Shown: positions 34,736 to 44,038 of the stretch, in pieces
Layout of the letters: each line of letters starts with the position of its first letter
How positions within the stretch are numbered: position 1 is the first letter of the stretch
Assembly (NCBI GenBank): GCA_001780895.1
Contig: MFJJ01000033.1
Location: forward strand, 1 to 44,038
Direction: 5' to 3'
DNA length: 44,038 nucleotides
Source of the DNA: Candidatus Gottesmanbacteria bacterium RIFCSPHIGHO2_01_FULL_46_14
GTDB taxonomy: Bacteria; Patescibacteriota; Microgenomatia; UBA10105; UBA927
Made by a program: the position numbers and the translations under genes
The notes under the pieces: generated by a model
Told to the model about the DNA's origin: nothing
Seen by the model: the letters and a program-made list of their open reading frames with translations, nothing else
The model's database searches: none

Positions 34736-35958
34736 AGGTTTTATTTATTACCTCCACATTTCCAAGAAGCGATTCTGATACACAGGTCCCGTGGTTATCT
34801 CATCTTATCTTGGAGCTTTGCAAACGAGGAATTGCCCCTCTGGTGTTTGCGCCATCGTACAAAGGTCTCCCGTCACACACCTATCGTGGCATTCCCGTCG
34901 TTCGTTTTCGCTACGCTCCGGCGCCCCTTGAGATACTCACCCACGAGGAAGGTGCGGTGTTTAAACTTCGGCAGCGTCCGTGGTTATCTGTGCTTTCCAT
35001 TTTTTACCTTTGCGCGGGACTTATGGGGCTAATTAGGCTGCGGAAAAAACAATTTGATATTGTCCATGTGCAATGGCCATTTCCCAATGGCATTCTTGGA
35101 CTTTTTGCTAAGTTGGTTTTTGGCGCAAAACTTATTCTTACATTCCATGGGGCGGAGTTTACCCTGATTCGGAAAGTTCCACTGGGAAATTCGATTCTGC
35201 GATATATACTCTCCAAAGCCGATCAGGTAATTGCCAACTCCACCTTTACGCGCGACTTAATTCATCAAATTTTGAGGATTCCGGTATATATTATCCCTTT
35301 CGCATCTACTGTTTCGGTTGGCCAAAGAGCAACGTTCAAACGAATTTTATCCAAGAAAACATTCAACATACTTTTCGTTGGTCGACTCATTGAGCGAAAG
35401 GGCGTGCAATACCTCATTTGGGCATTTGAACGCCTCCACAAAAAAAATAGTAACGTCAGACTGGATGTAGTCGGAAATGGCCCGTTACTAACCCAGATCA
35501 AAGAGCAAGTGGATGCATGCGGATTGCATGGGGTAGTCAGGCTATATGAGAATATTGGCGAGAAGGAGTTGGTCCGATTTTACCAAAAGAGCGACCTATT
35601 TGTTCTTCCCTCCATTGTCGACCGGTGGAAGGACACGGAAGGGCTTGGCGTCGTCCTTATTGAAGCCATGAGTTTCGGTATACCAGTCATAGCTTCCAAT
35701 GTGGGAGGAATACCCAGCGTGGTGAAGCATTATGAAAATGGATTATTAGTTCCGCAAAAAGATCCAGTAGCACTTGCCAATGCAATCGACGAACTTATTC
35801 GCAACCCAAACCTTGCGAAGAGATTGGGGGAAAATGGCGTATCTTTTGTGAGAAAAAATTATAACTGGGAGTCGATAGTGGGCAAAACTATCCGTCTTTA
35901 TAACAATCCGTACGATAATATTACAGGAAGCTATGGTAAAAGGCGTCGCGCCACTTAA
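34732..35958 (+). CDS. GT4 glycosyltransferase
   Basis: TFHG, FVGRLIERKG, LPS...TEGLGVVLIEAM, GGIP, NG.LVP. Confidence 0.92.
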   Translation: MKVLFITSTFPRSDSDTQVPWLSHLILELCKRGIAPLVFAPSYKGLPSHTYRGIPVVRFRYAPAPLEILTHEEGAVFKLRQRPWLSVLSIFYLCAGLMGLIRLRKKQFDIVHVQWPFPNGILGLFAKLVFGAKLILTFHGAEFTLIRKVPLGNSILRYILSKADQVIANSTFTRDLIHQILRIPVYIIPFASTVSVGQRATFKRILSKKTFNILFVGRLIERKGVQYLIWAFERLHKKNSNVRLDVVGNGPLLTQIKEQVDACGLHGVVRLYENIGEKELVRFYQKSDLFVLPSIVDRWKDTEGLGVVLIEAMSFGIPVIASNVGGIPSVVKHYENGLLVPQKDPVALANAIDELIRNPNLAKRLGENGVSFVRKNYNWESIVGKTIRLYNNPYDNITGSYGKRRRAT

Positions 35959-38140
35959 TGGGGGATCGATATTCAGGTAGCTCTGGTAGCGCCTCGGGAG
36001 CAGGAGTCGATTCGAACACTTCCACGTTATCAATGTAGCTTGTGTACGGGTAAGCAGGGTTTTTACGCTGAAAACTCACCGTCATAAAGCGAGCGTTTTG
36101 GGGTGCTTTAGCGCTGACCTCTACCTTGTCCCACTGGCCGGAAGCGGTCGCTCTTTGAGAAATGGCTACATCCATGCTCATGAGTGAAAGAGTTTTGGCT
36201 GACGCATCGGGATAAAAATCGATGCGCAGGAACCCGTCTTCCTGTTCAGGCTGGCTCGTGACATTTTTTATCCATCCGGAAGCTGTATAGTGTTTGTCGG
36301 CAGTGACAGCAAGGGGATCAGAAACCACTTTGGTTGTTGCGTCGCCTCCTCCCGGGGGGACTTGCATGGAGCCGGTATCGTTTTTGCCCGTTGTAGTCCA
36401 CTGGGGGGTCATGGGTGATAGTTGAAACGGGTCTACCGGATGCCAGAGAGTCATTGCGTTCTCAAAGCGAAAACGACTTACCATAGCGTCAAGCGAAATG
36501 GGCGGGCGCGGAATTTTAAATACCAGATATCCAAATTCACGTCCTTGCCACGGTTTGTAAAATTCAGCGACAGTATGAGGGATGAGTTCCCGTAACGTCA
36601 ACCCGTAAAAGCTTTCGAGAATATAATCATAGGGTACTTCTCCATACTTGAGAAGCCAGGTTTGTCTCGGAAATTGCCTCCACCAGTAAGTGACACTCTG
36701 AAATTGTTGTATGAGAAGTATGGCAAAATCAGTTCTCTCCTTTGAAAATTCAGCTAACGAATTTGGGCCTTTGGAGTAGTCCCACTCCGAAACGTTTATG
36801 TTTTTGTTTTTGATCGCGTCCTGGCCCTTGAAGTTCATAAAAAAGAACAATTGATACGTTCGGACGTTGCTGTTCGCCGGTAATTTTTCAATAAACCAAT
36901 TGGCCAGATCGTTTATGTTCCAGTCCTTACGAAAGCTTTTGTCAAGGAGGATGACATTTTTGATAGGCTGCACATTAACCAACACTAAAAGTAATGCGAT
37001 GATGATCACAGAGATTTGTGACGATTTCAAAATCGGTTTAACGAGAGAATAAAATCCGTACGCCGCCAACAGCATAATATATGGCATTGGAGTAATAAAA
37101 TTTCTTGAAAATATGCCGCCATTACTAAAGTACGTCATAAAAACAATGAAAGAGCCGGCAAATGCCAGGATAAGAAAAAGTTTCAGTTTTTCTTTGAAAA
37201 ATAGGAAGATGGTACCTATCACGACGAGAACTGACGGCAATCGATCAACTCCCCAATGAAACAGGTAAAAATAGTGATACATGCGAAATCCGAGCGCTCC
37301 TATTTGATAGCGTCCCACGTCCTGCCGATTTCGAAAAAAGGCGTTTTCAATATTGGGAAAATAATACGGATTGATGATGACAAACGTAGCAAGCGCGGCA
37401 GCTACCGCCAACCAGGCATTTTTTCCTATAATATAGAAGAAATTTTTTTTTCGAATGGCCCATACGATATGCACAAGAAGTACCGGTAGGGCCGCAAATG
37501 GTTGGTATTTTAGTGAAAAGGTCAACGCAACAGCCATGCCAGCAAAGACGTATCGTTTGGCCTTATTTTTTTCCAGGAGGAGCACAGACGCATAAAGGGT
37601 CAAAAGTGCAGCAAACGCGTTAATTATATCGGGTAAACCAAAGAGACTGCCTAAGACATGCCTGTGGTTGATTGCTAGAAAAAATGCCGCAAACAGGCCA
37701 ACGGATGTATTAAATAATTTTTTCCCAACGACATAAAGAAGGATAATCGTCGCTGATCCGATGAAAGCAGAGATATATCGGGACCAATACATAGCGTATA
37801 CCATGCGCAAACCAAAAATAGATTTTTCATATATCTCAAAAACCCTGGGGTTGAGCGTAATAAAATTCCATAGACTATTGGGCTCTGTGACAAACAGATG
37901 CAATAAACTGATTGGAATGAAAATATTGCGATACACAAGTGCGTGAATGAGAGCCATGCCCGCCGGATAGTCGAATCGGTCGGGCTTCCAGTTATTGAGA
38001 TTCATGTAAATTGCAGTGACAAAACTCGTCGGCTCGTCTGGATGGTAGGGGTTATAGCCGGGATACACTGCGGCAAATCGCACCGCAAAGCCGATCATAA
38101 TGACGGCAACTACTAAAAGCACATTTTTTTTAAACCTCAT
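35921..38140 (-). CDS. GT-C glycosyltransferase (ArnT/PMT_2-like) with C-terminal CBM4/9-like beta-sandwich
   Basis: YHPDEP, FDYP, SR, LPD, LKY. The C-terminus FEN...W...HYTASGWIK...GQW..V....AP.NAR...YIDNV is typical of galactose-binding-like CBMs. Confidence 0.8.
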   Translation of the reverse strand: MRFKKNVLLVVAVIMIGFAVRFAAVYPGYNPYHPDEPTSFVTAIYMNLNNWKPDRFDYPAGMALIHALVYRNIFIPISLLHLFVTEPNSLWNFITLNPRVFEIYEKSIFGLRMVYAMYWSRYISAFIGSATIILLYVVGKKLFNTSVGLFAAFFLAINHRHVLGSLFGLPDIINAFAALLTLYASVLLLEKNKAKRYVFAGMAVALTFSLKYQPFAALPVLLVHIVWAIRKKNFFYIIGKNAWLAVAAALATFVIINPYYFPNIENAFFRNRQDVGRYQIGALGFRMYHYFYLFHWGVDRLPSVLVVIGTIFLFFKEKLKLFLILAFAGSFIVFMTYFSNGGIFSRNFITPMPYIMLLAAYGFYSLVKPILKSSQISVIIIALLLVLVNVQPIKNVILLDKSFRKDWNINDLANWFIEKLPANSNVRTYQLFFFMNFKGQDAIKNKNINVSEWDYSKGPNSLAEFSKERTDFAILLIQQFQSVTYWWRQFPRQTWLLKYGEVPYDYILESFYGLTLRELIPHTVAEFYKPWQGREFGYLVFKIPRPPISLDAMVSRFRFENAMTLWHPVDPFQLSPMTPQWTTTGKNDTGSMQVPPGGGDATTKVVSDPLAVTADKHYTASGWIKNVTSQPEQEDGFLRIDFYPDASAKTLSLMSMDVAISQRATASGQWDKVEVSAKAPQNARFMTVSFQRKNPAYPYTSYIDNVEVFESTPAPEALPELPEYRSPIKWRDAFYHSFL

Positions 38141-40203
38141 AGTGGATTATTTTTCAGCCGATATACCCTTATGTCTTGGATTGCCGCTAAACAATCGTCG
38201 GATACATATGAATTTAGAGTAATTGACTTGGCCTCTTCTGCCGCTAGTAGGTAGAACGGCTTTGGGTAGAGAAATTCTTCAAATATTTTATACCTTCTCG
38301 CTGGAATAACAATAGGGCTCTTTTTATTATTTCCGGTTTGGAAGGTAAAGCTTCCAACTATAGTGTCTTCTCTGCTGCATGAATTTGGCAGGTCAAGTTC
38401 TAACCTCGTGACAAAACTTTGCTCCGGTAAGTTTACCTGCGCCCCATAGAGATTTGACGTAAAGGTTATTCCGGCGACGGCCTCTTCCTCTTGGAGATAC
38501 CCCTTTTTCGTATGCTCTTTGTCATTTTTCCATATTTTCATAAGCGGAATGCCGTCTTCAGTTATGATGTAGACAGGATTTAGAAAATTTTCAACATACC
38601 GCATCGGGTACCACATGAGCCTGTCTTCAATTTGGGCTGTACTAATAATGTATTCCCCTTTCCGAAGCGTCCCGCTTACCGGATCATCGGTATAGGCGAT
38701 ATCGTTTCGTACCCAAACTCTCGGTAAATTAGAGTTTAATTCATAGCCTAAGACTAATGTGGCGTTGGGTTCGGCATATCTATTTAGCCAAAGGACCGCT
38801 TGTCTATACTCGTTGCCTAAACTTTCGCCCGCACCCGGTATACTTTTTTCTTCCGCGCCTTTAAGACCACCGATCAGCGGATTGAAGTAGAGACTCTCGT
38901 TGGGGTGCATGGAGATCATCTTGAGGGTGATGGGGATAAACGAAAGAAAAATGAGGATCTGAAGTAAAAAACTATAATCTTTATACTGTTTATAACGAGT
39001 ATAGTTTTTATATATTTTTATCAAAAATCCTGCTCCTATCCCCGCGAGGATGGCCATGGGGGGGATGTACTCCATAATCTGTCGGACGCCGCTGTAGATA
39101 ACGGCTCGTGGAAACATGACACGAATTATTGGAACCAAGAACCAAAAGAGAACGAGGAAAAAGGCGTTTTTAGCTATTCCTTTGAGCTTAAATCCGAAAA
39201 TAATACCAAGGAGCCAATAAAGGAGAATTATCAAGGGTGTTGCAAACAGGACATAGTAGAGCGGGTATACCTTAAGTCCAGCGCTTGCAGATGTTCCGAT
39301 TTTTTTATAATACGCAATTGACGCCAACAGAAGTTTTGGTTCAAACCAACTTGCAGGATAGCTACCCACCCAAACGAGTACAAATATCAGCGGAATGAAC
39401 AAACACCATACAATGAATAGACGATTGTTACGTATAAATTCATGGATTTTGACCATACCGGTTTTACGAAACGCAGGGATGATCATGGTCGATATCCAAG
39501 GCAAAAATATAAAAATACTGAAAAGGAAATTAAATTTTGTCGCAAACGCCATAGCGCCTACGAGAGAGAATGCTATGAGATACTTGAGGCTCATTTTAGT
39601 TACTGCAAAAAAGAAGAGGTAGATACTTAAGCTGAAATAAACCGTTTCCGGAATATCTTTCACATTAAAATGCAGCTCTCCCCAATAGAGGGGAAACAAC
39701 GCAAGAGAGAGGGAGGCAATGAGACCGGAAAACCAGCCGAATATTTTCTCGACCCAAAGAAATGTGGCTAAAACCAACAATGCTCCGAGAAGCACCGAAT
39801 AGAAATTATACGAATAGACATCAGAAGCTATCCCGAGTTTTTGGAAAAAAATGTAATTGCTTACGGCGGCTATCATATCGCTAAATACCGGGTGATTGCC
39901 TCGATTTTCGATATCGTCTATGTAGAAAGAAAATGGCATGAACTGATACATGCTTCGGCGGATAACGGTGTGTGTTTTTTCGTCTTTGAACACATACCCA
40001 AAGTCTTGGACATAGCTTCCCCCCTCCAGGTCAGGTAAGTTAGAAAAATCCTTTTTACCCGTTAAAACATAGTTGAGAAACGTCTGTCCCCTGATAAAGT
40101 GGGCACCTTCATCCCAGTTGACTCCGTAGTTAGGAAGGGTTGCAATTGCTAGTATCAAGTAAAGAACGCAAAAGACGTATGGAAGCAGTCTAGATAATTT
40201 CAT
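38137..40203 (-). CDS. GT-C glycosyltransferase (ArnT/PMT_2-like, NWDE subfamily) with C-terminal beta domain
   Basis: YGVNWDE..HF.RGQ, HP, FNVKDIPE, ATKFN, IY.GVRQIME, YFNPL.GG. Paralog of 41921..43966. Confidence 0.85.
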   Translation of the reverse strand: MKLSRLLPYVFCVLYLILAIATLPNYGVNWDEGAHFIRGQTFLNYVLTGKKDFSNLPDLEGGSYVQDFGYVFKDEKTHTVIRRSMYQFMPFSFYIDDIENRGNHPVFSDMIAAVSNYIFFQKLGIASDVYSYNFYSVLLGALLVLATFLWVEKIFGWFSGLIASLSLALFPLYWGELHFNVKDIPETVYFSLSIYLFFFAVTKMSLKYLIAFSLVGAMAFATKFNFLFSIFIFLPWISTMIIPAFRKTGMVKIHEFIRNNRLFIVWCLFIPLIFVLVWVGSYPASWFEPKLLLASIAYYKKIGTSASAGLKVYPLYYVLFATPLIILLYWLLGIIFGFKLKGIAKNAFFLVLFWFLVPIIRVMFPRAVIYSGVRQIMEYIPPMAILAGIGAGFLIKIYKNYTRYKQYKDYSFLLQILIFLSFIPITLKMISMHPNESLYFNPLIGGLKGAEEKSIPGAGESLGNEYRQAVLWLNRYAEPNATLVLGYELNSNLPRVWVRNDIAYTDDPVSGTLRKGEYIISTAQIEDRLMWYPMRYVENFLNPVYIITEDGIPLMKIWKNDKEHTKKGYLQEEEAVAGITFTSNLYGAQVNLPEQSFVTRLELDLPNSCSREDTIVGSFTFQTGNNKKSPIVIPARRYKIFEEFLYPKPFYLLAAEEAKSITLNSYVSDDCLAAIQDIRVYRLKNNPL
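38893..39099 (-). repeat. Copy 1 of a near-identical intragenic tract (inverted partner at 43034..43213), with a 27-nt insertion
   Basis: Manual alignment: 12 mismatches in 180 aligned nt, plus a 27-nt insert at 38974-39000. Confidence 0.9.
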
Positions 40204-40221
40204 TGTTGGTAAGCGATGATT

Positions 40222-40231
40222 ATTGTATCAT
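40222..40231. promoter_or_regulatory. Overlapping divergent -10-like boxes
   Basis: Plus-strand TATCAT 40226-40231 is 6 nt before ATG 40238. Minus-strand TGaTACAAT (40227-40222) is 18 nt before ATG 40203. Confidence 0.45.
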
Positions 40232-40237
40232 GGACGT

Positions 40238-41401
40238 ATGAAAAAATTGTTAATAACAGCATTTATTGGTTCTGCAAATCTTGGGGACAATGCTATTTTT
40301 GTGGCTATATCCCAACATTTATTGAGTAATAAAACTATCAGCCTTTCAGCATTTACTTCAAATATACGAAGACATACTCATATGGAGCCTGTCCGTTTCA
40401 TTCAAACTATCAATCCTATAAGAATCATATCAGAGATCGCGCGTTGTGACCTGTTGGTTATCGGCGGTGGAGGTATCATTCAAGATGAAACAACAGCATA
40501 CAATCTCATTCGCCATACCTATAAAGCATTGATTGCAATACTCCTTCGAAAGAAATTCATGTTTTACGCAGTTGGCGTAAGCCGGCTTAGGTCTTTGGTT
40601 AATCGCATGCTCGCGCGTTTTGTCCTTGAGAGAGCTGTTGCCGTCACCGTGAGGGATGAAGAATCAAAAAATATTATTCGATCATTAGGAGTAGACCGAG
40701 AAGTATTCGTCACAGCCGATCCCGTAGTGAATTTACGCATCAACAAGCTCGCTCCGTTCCCAAAATCACCGAAGAGGTACATCGTCGTTTGTCTGCGGCA
40801 CTGGTTTGACATCAACCGGTATATCCCGGTGGCTGTGGTAAACAAAATACACTATAGATCCCAAACGAATAAAAAGAAATATGAAGCGTTTCTTGCGGTG
40901 ATCGCTCCATTTTTTGACTGGCTCGTGAGCCGGTATAACTATACCATTATGTTTATGCCTTTCTTCGATCAGCGGGATGACGTGGTGCACGCAGACGTTA
41001 TGAAACACATGAAGCAGCCAGACAGCTGTATAAACATAGGCAGACAGCCGTCGCTTGAAGAAGTGTATACTCGTATCGCCGGCGCCAGTTTTGTTTTAGG
41101 CATGCGTCTTCATTCGTTGATAATCTCCTCGACCCAAAATACGCCGTTTATCGCTCTGACGTACGCACGGAAAGTTTCTAGCTTTGTCGATGAACTATCG
41201 CTTTCAACGTATAGTCTAGGACTTGAAAAGCTTACGGTGTCAGAGCTTGAGGATGTGTGCATCAAGCTCCACTCTGAAAGGACTCATATACAATCTACGC
41301 TCAAACGCAGGTTCGCTGTTTTACAAAGGAGAGAGAAGAGCAATGTCAGAATTTTACGAAAAGTGCTTACTGCAGCGAGTATTCTGCCTCAAGAATGTTA
41401 A
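40238..41401 (+). CDS. Polysaccharide pyruvyl transferase (CsaB/WcaK family)
   Basis: G..NLGDNAI, IGGGGIIQDET, VRDEES, TADP, GMRLHSLI, Y..KV. Start placed at ATG 40238. Confidence 0.9.
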   Translation: MKKLLITAFIGSANLGDNAIFVAISQHLLSNKTISLSAFTSNIRRHTHMEPVRFIQTINPIRIISEIARCDLLVIGGGGIIQDETTAYNLIRHTYKALIAILLRKKFMFYAVGVSRLRSLVNRMLARFVLERAVAVTVRDEESKNIIRSLGVDREVFVTADPVVNLRINKLAPFPKSPKRYIVVCLRHWFDINRYIPVAVVNKIHYRSQTNKKKYEAFLAVIAPFFDWLVSRYNYTIMFMPFFDQRDDVVHADVMKHMKQPDSCINIGRQPSLEEVYTRIAGASFVLGMRLHSLIISSTQNTPFIALTYARKVSSFVDELSLSTYSLGLEKLTVSELEDVCIKLHSERTHIQSTLKRRFAVLQRREKSNVRILRKVLTAASILPQEC

Positions 41402-41918
41402 GCTCGTTCTCATTTCTTTGCGAAAATTCCAGAATTTTTTGTAGCTCTTGTTGGATGTCGCCGGAGGATTTATCGATCATTGATTGGATGACTTGGAGAT
41501 GATATGGATATGCGTCGTGTGCAAGCTTCGTTATGTTTAGATCCAGGGAGTCAGTGGAATCGGCCACGACCTTGAGTGTGTTGACAAATAAGGTCATGTA
41601 GTTCTCTCCCCGAAATGCGGTGTGAAGTGCAAGCGGACCGTTACCCTTCTCCAGCACTTTCACAGCAGTTGTCAGTTCCCGATCAGCCAATGCAACGTAT
41701 TTGCGTGCTTTGGTATACGGATTGGGTGATAAAATGAGTGAAATCCTGTCCAGAGCTAGTCTGATTTTATAAAGCGGGCTATCGGGTAAAAGGTTTGTTT
41801 CTGGTGCTTGGTAAACAACCTGCGGTTGCACCGAAGGAACAGGTGAGGGAGAAATCTGTGCGTTGGCCTGGGATGAAACCGTCAGAAGAATGAAAAAAGC
41901 AGCAAATAATCGTTTCAT
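41367..41918 (-). CDS. Secreted helical protein, DUF5667-like, with Pro/Ser-rich N-terminal linker
   Basis: Signal peptide ending ANA, QISPSPVPSVQP, LLPDSPLYKI...D.I.L.L...KA.....ADREL. Confidence 0.75.
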   Translation of the reverse strand: MKRLFAAFFILLTVSSQANAQISPSPVPSVQPQVVYQAPETNLLPDSPLYKIRLALDRISLILSPNPYTKARKYVALADRELTTAVKVLEKGNGPLALHTAFRGENYMTLFVNTLKVVADSTDSLDLNITKLAHDAYPYHLQVIQSMIDKSSGDIQQELQKILEFSQRNENELNILEAEYSLQ

Positions 41919-41920
41919 AG

Positions 41921-43966
41921 ATGAACACTATCACAAAAATATTCTATAATCAAGCACCAGTTGGGTATATCCTTTCCCAAATATACATGAAAAGCAACCG
42001 AATGACACTATCTATACTTTTGGCGGTGGTATTTTTTGGAATTGGGCTCTCTAGTTTGCCCCACTATGGAGTGAATTGGGATGAACCGGTGCATTTTGGT
42101 CGAGGACAAGCGATACTTCATTATTTTTTTACCGGGAAAAAAGACTATGCTGATTTGGAAAAATTCCAGCCGGCGAGGAGAAGTTTTTATCAGAGCGAGG
42201 CATATACGTTTAACTTTTTTGAAAAAAAATTTACAGCCGCTGACCCTTTGACCGTTGGCGGCCACCCACCCTTGAGTGGTTTTTTGGCAACAATATCGAA
42301 TGTAATTTTTTACCAAAAATTGGGAATTTTGGGAGATATCGAAGCATATCATTTGTATGGTGTATTTGTTTCAGCGGTGTTTATTGGAATTATCTTTTAT
42401 TTTGTTCACGATATTTATGGGCCTTTCATAGCAATGGTTGCTACAATTTCTTTGATGACGTATCCGCTTTTTTTGGGAGAAAGCCGTTTTAATATCAAAG
42501 ATCCACCAGAGGCATGTTATTTCGGTATCACGTTAATTTGTTTTTACTATACTGTCGTGAGAAACAGACCGGGATGGATACTTTTCACAGCTATCTTTTT
42601 TGGATTAGGATTGGCGACTAAGCTCAATATTGTGTTTGCGTTACCCATTATGTTTTTTTGGGCCGTCGTCGTGGGTAGAAGAATATTACCCCGTTGGATT
42701 TTTGTAGTTCCTTTGATTGGAGCAGTAATTTTTTTCGTCGCTTGGCCGATGTTGTGGATGGATCCAGTGAGCCGAATCCTAAAAGTATTTGAGTACTATA
42801 CATCAATTGGGACTAATGCTGGTTTTGATCCGCGGTATTTGACCATTTTCCGTTTTAATACGTACGCGTTGCAATGGATTCTCTATACGACACCCGTAGG
42901 CACATTATTTTTTAGTTTCTTGGGTATATTTTATGCAGTACGAAGCGTAAAAAAAGATAAAAATAAACTTTCGCTCCTACTTCTCTTGTGGTTTTTCGTT
43001 CCGCTCGCAAGAGTTACCGTTCCTAACGCCAATATCTACGGCGGCGTCCGGCAGATCATGGAGTACATCCCCCCCATGGCTATCCTTGCGGGGATAGGAG
43101 CAGGATTTTTGATAAAAATATATAAAAATTATAGTTTTTTACTTCAAATCCTCATTCTTCTCTCGTTTGTCCCCATCACCCTCAAGATGATCTCCATGTA
43201 TCCCAACGAGAGTGTATACTTTAATCCATTAATAGGTGGGCTGAAGGGAGCTAAAGAGCGCAACATTCCTGGTTGGGGCAATTCTCTCGGGAGCACGTAC
43301 CGGCAGGGAATCAGATGGATCAATACCTACGCCCAGCGGGAGGCGAAGATTGCTACTCTTTTTGGCCTTCGTAGTAATATTGCTCTTACTGACATCCGAG
43401 CAGATATCGAGTTTGAAAGTCAATTTCGTAGCGGAATCATGCGTCAAGGAGAATACATCATTGGACCCACACATGAAGGAAGTCAAGAAGACTCATATCT
43501 GTATAAATATCTTGAACGCTTTCTTGAACCTGCCTATCAACTTAAGGCACAAGGGGTGCCTATTCTCAAGGTGTGGAAAAATGATCTCGCGCATACCAAA
43601 GAGGATTACCAAAATGAAAAAAAAATCATAGGGGCACCATCGTATTCCCAAAACGGGAAAACACTCATTGTTGATGCAGGCAGTTTGGTTAAGTTTACCA
43701 AAGTAGATATACGATACCCTCCCTCCTCTTGCTTACCGCCGAGAGAGGGTTATATTGAATATTCGACTGATGGAGAGCGCTGGTCGCGAGAAGGAAATGA
43801 TCTGGCCCACCGCCCCATCCCTTTTTGGTTTCAAACCGAACCCGATCCTGGGACGTTTCAGTTTTTGTTTGCAGCGGAACCCGCCCGTTATATCCAATTT
43901 GTTAACATAGATCCAAGCTCGTGTTTGTTTAAAAAACCGTTGCATGTGACTATCTCATATTTATGA
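41921..43966 (+). CDS. GT-C glycosyltransferase (NWDE subfamily) with C-terminal discoidin/F5-8-like domain
   Basis: YGVNWDEPVHF.RGQ, GHPPL, FNIKDPPE, ATKLN; C-terminal IEYSTDGERW...PARYIQF. The true start may be ATG 41987. Confidence 0.85.
   Translation: MNTITKIFYNQAPVGYILSQIYMKSNRMTLSILLAVVFFGIGLSSLPHYGVNWDEPVHFGRGQAILHYFFTGKKDYADLEKFQPARRSFYQSEAYTFNFFEKKFTAADPLTVGGHPPLSGFLATISNVIFYQKLGILGDIEAYHLYGVFVSAVFIGIIFYFVHDIYGPFIAMVATISLMTYPLFLGESRFNIKDPPEACYFGITLICFYYTVVRNRPGWILFTAIFFGLGLATKLNIVFALPIMFFWAVVVGRRILPRWIFVVPLIGAVIFFVAWPMLWMDPVSRILKVFEYYTSIGTNAGFDPRYLTIFRFNTYALQWILYTTPVGTLFFSFLGIFYAVRSVKKDKNKLSLLLLLWFFVPLARVTVPNANIYGGVRQIMEYIPPMAILAGIGAGFLIKIYKNYSFLLQILILLSFVPITLKMISMYPNESVYFNPLIGGLKGAKERNIPGWGNSLGSTYRQGIRWINTYAQREAKIATLFGLRSNIALTDIRADIEFESQFRSGIMRQGEYIIGPTHEGSQEDSYLYKYLERFLEPAYQLKAQGVPILKVWKNDLAHTKEDYQNEKKIIGAPSYSQNGKTLIVDAGSLVKFTKVDIRYPPSSCLPPREGYIEYSTDGERWSREGNDLAHRPIPFWFQTEPDPGTFQFLFAAEPARYIQFVNIDPSSCLFKKPLHVTISYL
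43034..43213 (+). repeat. Copy 2 of the near-identical intragenic tract (inverted partner at 38893..39099)
   Basis: Includes perfect matches of 41, 29 and 23 nt to the reverse complement of copy 1. Confidence 0.9.
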
Positions 43967-44038
43967 AACGTTGGTGTCTGTTTTTAGGAATTATATTTAT
44001 GGGGGCGTACTGCTTGATAAATGTTCGCTCGCTATCTG
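43963..44038 (+). CDS. Start of next membrane protein (truncated by window)
   Basis: ATGA overlap with the previous stop; MKRWCLFLGIIFMGAYCLINVRSLS resembles the TM1 of the other genes. Confidence 0.55.
   Translation, partial: MKRWCLFLGIIFMGAYCLINVRSLS

Follow-up and report, generated by a model that had tools for sequence, protein, structure and literature searches.

We analysed a 44,038-nucleotide (nt) window, the whole of contig C33 from the metagenome-assembled genome (MAG; G000) of Candidatus Gottesmanbacteria bacterium RIFCSPHIGHO2_01_FULL_46_14, which comprises 943 kb in 63 contigs and is 90% complete. The window contains two divergent genes, here called A and B, which encode predicted ArnT-like membrane glycosyltransferases of the GT-C type; a polysaccharide pyruvyl transferase gene and a DUF5667 gene lie in between (Table 1). 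Within these strongly diverged genes a short tract, encoding the last two membrane helices and the loop between them, is nearly identical in DNA, and the same tract is carried by two further paralogs, B2 and gene 3, the first of which begins at the very end of the window. Based on the identity at synonymous sites, the sharp borders of the tract and the conflict between trees of the tract and trees of its flanks, we consider it very likely (a probability of about 0.85) that the tract records gene conversion among the four paralogs, as a by-product of recombination and not as a programmed switch.

Codon alignment of A and B matches 168 of 180 aligned nt within the tract. The 12 mismatches are all transitions and are spread through it, and they are accompanied by one 27-nt indel, a segment of A that is missing from B, and by a perfect run of 41 nt; the mismatch count, the indel and the run are as described in an initial annotation of this DNA. 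A repeat search also recovers the two copies as an inverted pair, I2 (39000–39105 and 43028–43133, 92%), which is extended by a second pair, I1. Outside the tract, 30-codon windows are 27–66% identical in nt and the rest of the two genes is 40–55% identical, with 339 transitions and 574 transversions among the flank mismatches. The proposed comparison of sliding-window identity and synonymous divergence (dS) gave a clear separation: dS is 0.24 and nonsynonymous divergence (dN) 0.03 in the tract (Nei-Gojobori, 60 codons), and the flanks are saturated, the proportion of differing synonymous sites (pS) being 0.78 on the N-terminal side (336 codons) and 0.86 on the C-terminal side (242 codons). 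The abrupt loss of identity where the protein stays conserved, also noted in the initial annotation, is evident in the 30 codons directly downstream: these specify the conserved YFNPLIGGLKGA block and yet have a pS of 0.97. Identical degenerate residues use the same codon at 45 of 52 positions in the tract versus 71 of 197 elsewhere (Fisher p = 5e-11). The tract in A and B is thereby confirmed and lies far beyond chance. The initial annotation had gone on to propose recent conversion; the conversion is upheld by dS, borders and trees, and the recency is not, since a dS of 0.24 indicates that the event is not very recent.

Inside the MAG the tract is carried by A and B only, and to that extent it is a two-copy feature, as first described. 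Beyond the contig end this no longer holds. Logan contigs of all four public runs contain a third version of the tract with flanks unlike those of A or B, and a protein search restricted to the tract gave 448 matches at E <= 1e-5 among 741 candidates. Among the best 120 of these 448, which were the matches listed, the tract is found in five clusters, namely those of B (P0001), A (P0005), P0002, P0003 and P0004; the next-best of the listed matches are 73% identical or less. P0002 (members P0130 and P0132) is gene 3, encoded on metagenome locus L045:328-2355, and B2 is represented by P0134, a full-length, 683-residue member of the P0004 cluster. Translation of 43963–44037 gives exactly the first 25 residues of P0134, and its last 109 residues are encoded by L045:2-331, which joins gene 3 with a 4-nt overlap. 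Because P0134 matches both the contig end and the start of L045 in this way, we read the locus order as A (minus strand), pyruvyl transferase, DUF5667 (minus strand), B, B2 and gene 3. Among the contigs recorded for these proteins are one of 114 kb with A and B and one of 54 kb to which both B2 and gene 3 are assigned. An origin of the third tract variant in another organism, with exchange between lineages, was considered and dropped, as the contig end encodes the start of B2; GC (guanine plus cytosine) content and tetranucleotide composition gave no separation between a same-organism and an other-organism origin.

Overall, the four paralogs, of about 680 residues each, are only 30–55% identical. 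The tract of gene 3 matches that of A at 193 of 207 nt and that of B at 163 of 180 (90.6–93.2% for gene 3 against A and B), and the A–B, A–gene 3 and B–gene 3 tracts share a common start, ATC TAC GGC, and a common end, AAC GAG AG, outside which identity is 25–69%. The 180 positions common to these copies contain 4 differences private to A, 8 private to B and 9 private to gene 3, with no three-way conflicts, a star-like pattern. B2 and gene 3, compared at the protein level only, are identical over 118 residues (B2 residues 363–480), and because this identical stretch is longer, these two have probably been homogenised more recently than the other pairs.

The flanks and the tract give conflicting trees. 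With N-terminal and C-terminal halves alike, A groups with A-type orthologs (P0013, at 68% and 59%, and G018_1, from the closed genome of a relative, G018), B lies closest to G018_2 and P0006, and the neighbours of gene 3 are P0011, P0012 and G018_3. When the tract alone is used, A, B, B2 and gene 3 cluster tightly with one another, inside the B and gene-3 types. The residue that follows HPNE is G in 10 of 10 A-type orthologs and A in G018_1; in gene A it is S, as in the B and gene-3 types. Additionally, a loop insert like the 9-residue one of A and gene 3 (YIRYKHYKDYS) recurs in the gene-3-type ortholog P0012. As the tract of A groups with the B and gene-3 types, in agreement with the S residue and the loop insert, and its flanks are of A type, we infer that A was the recipient and that the donor was of gene-3 or B type. 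The 27 nt would then have been lost from B, most likely by slippage, since TATA flanks the segment on both sides.

The position of the tract in the protein was examined in an AlphaFold2 model of B, built from residue 23 with an alignment of 63 homologs (mean predicted local distance difference test, pLDDT, 90.9; predicted template modelling score, pTM, 0.92). In the model a membrane part with the GT-C fold precedes an outer soluble domain. The tract corresponds to residues 350–409 and comprises the conserved IYGGVRQIMEY loop, a helix (358–378), a short loop that is the site of the indel, a second helix (380–403) and the HPNES turn, which opens the soluble C-terminal domain; the earlier placement of the tract in the last membrane helices, at the domain boundary, agrees with this. 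Foldseek searches with the model return ArnT (5EZM and 5F15) first, at E about 1e-8, and then STT3/OST, PglB and AglB, each with a probability of 1.00, and the far C-terminus matches discoidin/CBM32 beta-sandwiches. A sequence profile gave 0 matches against the PDB. In PMT_2 (PF13231) searches B scores 40.1 bits, above the cut-off of 26.1, and A falls just under it at 26.0; database annotation gives PF13231 to both clusters. The first outer loop contains an NWDE motif in which D32 is invariant and N30 and W31 are at least 90% conserved (63 sequences), and conserved acidic residues in the first outer loop are a feature of GT-C enzymes. A, B, B2 and gene 3 are annotated as predicted ArnT-like GT-C glycosyltransferases.

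Taken together, these observations suggest the following course of events. The segment encoding the last two helices and their loop would have been homogenised among all four paralogs by RecA-type gene conversion. Its borders coincide with two stretches of family-wide motif, IYGGVRQIMEYIP on the 5' side and HPNES on the 3' side, and these may supply the homology at which exchange between diverged paralogs starts and ends; anchoring by conserved motifs would explain why the borders are identical in every pair. A donor of gene-3 or B type would have converted A, B would afterwards have lost its 27 loop nt, the copies in A, B and gene 3 would have drifted apart in star-like fashion, and B2 and gene 3 would have exchanged later. 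With A and B on one contig, B2 beginning there and gene 3 linked through P0134 and L045, donor and recipient fall within one genome. Searches of the 90%-complete MAG recovered RecA (contig C20) and returned neither MutS domain V nor the ComEC 'Competence' family. A genuine lack of MutS would make it easier for diverged repeats to recombine; from the ComEC result we draw no conclusion.

Sharing of the tract is specific to this lineage and not a property of the family. Compared with 80 other family genomes, the tract DNA finds a match in 4, at motif level only. The best match, with G061, reaches 86% over 69 nt, and the 5' border motif is thus kept at the DNA level across genera. An exact 34-mer from the tract has 0 matches in species-representative genomes, and seven within-genome paralog pairs from five other genomes or contigs peak at 0.64–0.80 per 40-codon window, with 0.47–0.64 in the tract columns.

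Some points weigh against gene conversion as set out here. The trees, made with FastTree from 80 to about 445 columns, are read without support values. A handful of diagnostic residues and a single loop insert set the direction of transfer, and B is connected through B2 to gene 3 by 25 plus 109 identical residues in one database protein (P0134) rather than by one continuous sequence; the B2 tract itself is known at the protein level and from Logan contig ends. Non-detection of MutS in a 90%-complete MAG is no proof of its absence. Finally, the GT-C function of the paralogs is a prediction, demonstrated for none of them.

Other explanations of the tract were weighed against conversion. Its sharp borders, the same in all copies, might be expected of a hidden element conserved at the nt level, for instance an RNA structure, a promoter inside the gene or a site at which a recombinase acts. 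We regard this as very improbable: there is no Rfam match at E <= 0.1 in 37500–44038, the orthologs in the 80 family genomes lack the nt tract, the 12 differences between A and B are spread through it, the neighbourhood has no gene for a reverse transcriptase or a recombinase and adenines are not singled out by the mismatches. The last two points also led us to reject a diversity-generating retroelement, since the scan, which covered 30 of 33 selected ORFs (open reading frames) of the window, all but three small ones of 97–127 residues, found no reverse transcriptase and since the 12 mismatches, transitions throughout, involve each of the four bases. The tract might also be an artefact of assembly, the MAG contig being chimeric or the consensus of one paralog having bled into another. 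This is a natural concern in a MAG of 63 contigs, where repeats break the assemblies and the last 75 nt of the contig already belong to the next paralog. Such an artefact is nevertheless the least probable of the alternatives, as each copy has private differences and Logan contigs from four runs in four studies reproduce the flank-plus-tract arrangements of both A and B (X2 records 10, 11, 15 and 16 with 0 differences). Moreover, 10 proteins of the B cluster and 7 of the A cluster, from separate contigs, have the same tract residues except for F393S in P0140, a partial member of the A cluster.

The initial annotation had also suggested that the two copies form an invertible, recombinase-free cassette for swapping domains. 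Its geometry is right: the genes are divergent, the copies are inverted, and a crossover between them would invert about 3.9 kb (39100–43033) and exchange N- and C-terminal halves in frame. Such a cassette is nonetheless unsupported and unlikely. The repeats have drifted by 7%, and this drift, the 27-nt indel and the dS of 0.24 argue that they are not maintained identical by frequent exchange. The suggested comparison of strains for chimeric alleles brought none to light, as 9 of 9 full-length B proteins (in the 10-member cluster) and 5 of 5 full-length A proteins (in the 7-member cluster), from other assemblies and contigs of up to 114 kb, are collinear, 14 of 14 in all. No protein joining a half of A to a half of B, B2 or gene 3 occurs among the 120 listed of the 448 tract matches, and the 7 matches among short fragments that span the tract include no chimera and none above 67% identity. 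Nor is the tract tied to the inverted layout, since two tandem paralogs on the same strand carry it too. No recombinase, integrase or reverse transcriptase is encoded among the 30 scanned ORFs, and the resolvase-like and integrase-like genes of the MAG are found only on contigs C52, C28 and C58. This negative evidence on inversion is moderate and not decisive, as assemblies report the majority form only. The Logan contigs of the four runs over this region all end inside the 41-nt run common to A and B. In three Logan 'joints' (39096>39636, 42352>43029 and 42084>42329) the short sides are 20–30 letters long with a likeness of 90, and we regard these joints not as deletions but as flanks of the B2 or gene-3 copies that align by chance or homology.

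A broader form of the same idea is that the tract is a working recombination linker that shuffles N-terminal membrane modules (donor/catalytic) onto different C-terminal outer domains, through inversions that involve A and through deletions or duplications within the tandem set of B, B2 and gene 3, so varying surface glycans without a dedicated recombinase. The in-frame geometry, the position of the tract exactly at the domain boundary and its presence in four paralogs are as this would have it, and inversions of hsdS in S. pneumoniae without CreX or RecA provide a precedent (PMC6620402). In its favour are also two proteins among the tract matches, P0003 (673 residues, a single member, on a 3-kb contig) and P0004 (485 residues, cut at the contig end), in which the N-terminal half of B2 and the tract are followed by the C-terminal half of gene 3, as expected from unequal crossover of tandem copies. 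The switch coincides exactly with the point where the 118 identical residues stop. P0003 and P0004 are different alleles from different assemblies, which have V261I, I264L and A302T in common when compared with P0134 and are distinct at other positions, and the C-terminal half of P0003 is one residue different from full-length gene-3 proteins. They are either deletion recombinants or, equally well, short-read mis-joins at a repeat at least some 354 nt long, and the reciprocal form, with a gene-3 N-terminal and a B2 C-terminal half, was not seen among 3 full-length gene-3 proteins. Relative to the A flank, the rough depth of the B2/gene-3 tract contig is 1.94, 1.63, 1.26 and 1.26 in the individual runs, values above one copy and below two; this would fit a mixture of two-copy and one-copy genomes and is a weak hint only. 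On balance, we put the chance that the B2/gene-3 fusion is real somewhat below even. The 7% divergence and the indel between the A and B copies, the collinearity of all full-length A and B proteins, the lack of a chimera between A and B, B2 or gene 3 among the listed matches and short fragments, the match of both halves of A, and likewise of B, to the same ortholog type, and the lack of the tract in related genomes make a working linker unlikely. At its furthest, the idea would have the tract kept in four paralogs as a common joint between membrane and outer domains, with crossovers re-pairing catalytic and acceptor-binding modules in natural populations of an episymbiont-like bacterium and P0003 and P0004 as the first recombinants seen, a proposal that we likewise regard as unlikely.

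Table 1. Positions, in the 44,038-nt window, of genes A and B, their tract copies and the features that lie with them.
Feature	Position	Strand	Description
Gene A	38137–40203	-	688 residues; GT-C (PMT_2/ArnT-like), 'A type', ortholog of the first of three tandem G018 genes; ORF with a PMT_2 score just under the cut-off
Tract copy in A	38893–39099	-	207 nt; encodes IYSGVRQIMEYIPP...KMISMHPNES, the last two membrane helices and loop; probable recipient copy
27-nt loop segment	38977–39003	-	YTRYKQYKD; present in A and gene 3, absent from B; TATA microhomology on each side
41-nt run identical in A and B	A 39005–39045 = B 43088–43128		
Polysaccharide pyruvyl transferase gene	40223–41401	+	PF04230, E = 1e-34; within the segment that a crossover would invert
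DUF5667 gene	41367–41918	-	PF18915; conserved upstream of the B-type gene in G018 too, 50% identical to that counterpart
Gene B	41921–43966	+	681 residues; GT-C 'B type', 61% identical to the second G018 gene
Tract copy in B	43034–43213	+	180 nt
Start of B2 (third paralog)	43963–44038	+	ATG overlaps the B stop codon; contig ends 75 nt into the gene

The long ORF of B begins 2 nt from the DUF5667 start codon, and homologs of B align from the ATG at 41987 onward. The true start of B is therefore probably 41987, which would leave a divergent intergenic region of 68 nt. Adjacent genes in the series B, B2, gene 3 have 4 nt in common, and because of these overlaps the three are probably co-transcribed. 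B appears to be the more polymorphic of the two genes in the window. Its N- and C-terminal halves carry several fixed differences across the four runs (e.g. 9 in 795 nt in X4 record 23; 42320–43540), and A together with the intergenic genes has 0 differences over 3.6 kb in that X4 run (37800–41443). One B allele, P0129, which comes from another assembly, has 10 substitutions in 16 residues of the first outer loop (residues 70–85, about 42128–42175) and 20 in all, the other B alleles differing at 2–8 sites, which suggests another patch of recombination, apart from the tract. The related loci in metagenome contigs included no near-identical strain of B, the best being 59%.

The whole 44-kb contig is a glycosylation island. 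Apart from the genes described above, 24 contig ORFs were scanned, and 16 have Pfam matches at E <= 1e-5, all to PMT, PMT_2, YfhO, GT2, GT4 or epimerase families. Of these, at least 10 in 1–35958 match the PMT, PMT_2 or YfhO membrane glycosyltransferase families; the other eight of the 24, of 170–527 residues, have no Pfam match. Downstream of gene 3, L045 encodes two GT4 enzymes, a methyltransferase, a DegT aminotransferase, a GT2, an epimerase/dehydratase, UDP-glucose dehydrogenase (Ugd) and another GT2, a set that we take to resemble an Arn-type donor pathway. Close orthologs of these genes, including the Arn-like donor genes, are missing from the MAG because its contig ends 75 nt into B2. 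At the opposite end, positions 1–58 of the window match positions 1–58 of contig C15 of the same MAG exactly in reverse complement, and for this reason the two contigs probably abut. In the closed relative G018 (L038) the order is GT4 (+), C (+), two genes, 1 (+), DUF5667 (-), 2 (+) and 3 (+). Relative to this, C and A lie in the other orientation in the window (35921–40203), a pyruvyl transferase gene is inserted and there is an extra B-type paralog. A simple block inversion does not account for the rearrangement.

As it stands, the tract provides a useful annotation, a caution about chimeric contigs and a new example of a known process, with no new mechanism. It offers a clear example, with well-defined borders, of segmental concerted evolution in a Candidate Phyla Radiation genome of reduced size, which would involve RecA-type exchange between highly diverged paralogs, and it explains why assemblies of the glycosylation island break here. 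If the B2/gene-3 fusion were true, shuffling of GT-C modules would be one route to surface-glycan diversity.

With ArnT (GT83) and other lipid-carrier-dependent GT-C enzymes, B has in common the fold, the PMT_2 family and the acidic motif, and Arn-like donor genes lie downstream on L045. Unlike ArnT, it has an additional C-terminal discoidin/CBM32-like beta-sandwich, and it shows no sequence-level match to solved chains. Among glycosyltransferase systems the nearest analogy is the Neisseria lgt locus, whose hybrid genes are said to have arisen by unequal crossover. There, as may be the case here, tandem glycosyltransferase paralogs with common stretches can delete the interval between them, and P0003 and P0004 have the form expected of such an event, with the difference that the fusion here may be an assembly error. 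An lgt locus with two instead of five lgt genes has been described in one strain (PMC2192810).

Invertons, shufflons and hsdS-type systems have bracketing inverted repeats, a nearby site-specific recombinase, repeats that are kept identical and both orientations in a population; here, the bracketing inverted repeats are found, without a site-specific recombinase among the scanned ORFs and without identity of the repeats. In the spnIII hsdS locus of S. pneumoniae, as in A and B, inverted repeats lie inside paralogous coding sequences, such that inversion swaps domains in frame. There, both orientations are found in clonal populations and one copy is expressed, whereas here both genes are complete and the repeats are 93% identical, with no second orientation or chimera found in assemblies, which give the majority form only, and no recombinase among the 30 scanned ORFs of the 44-kb contig. 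The spnIII inversion on repeats of 85 bp and 333 bp persists in creX and recA mutants (PMC6620402).

The closest parallel is with ectopic gene conversion and concerted evolution in bacterial multigene families, a textbook phenomenon. Neither this locus nor conversion between GT-C paralogs of these bacteria came up in the literature searches that we made. The likeness lies in a near-identical tract, including its synonymous sites, within diverged paralogs, in the conflicting trees and in the presence of RecA. What distinguishes this case from usual ectopic conversion is that a single membrane hairpin at a domain boundary is affected, with the same borders in four genes, in a Candidate Phyla Radiation genome of about 1 Mb.

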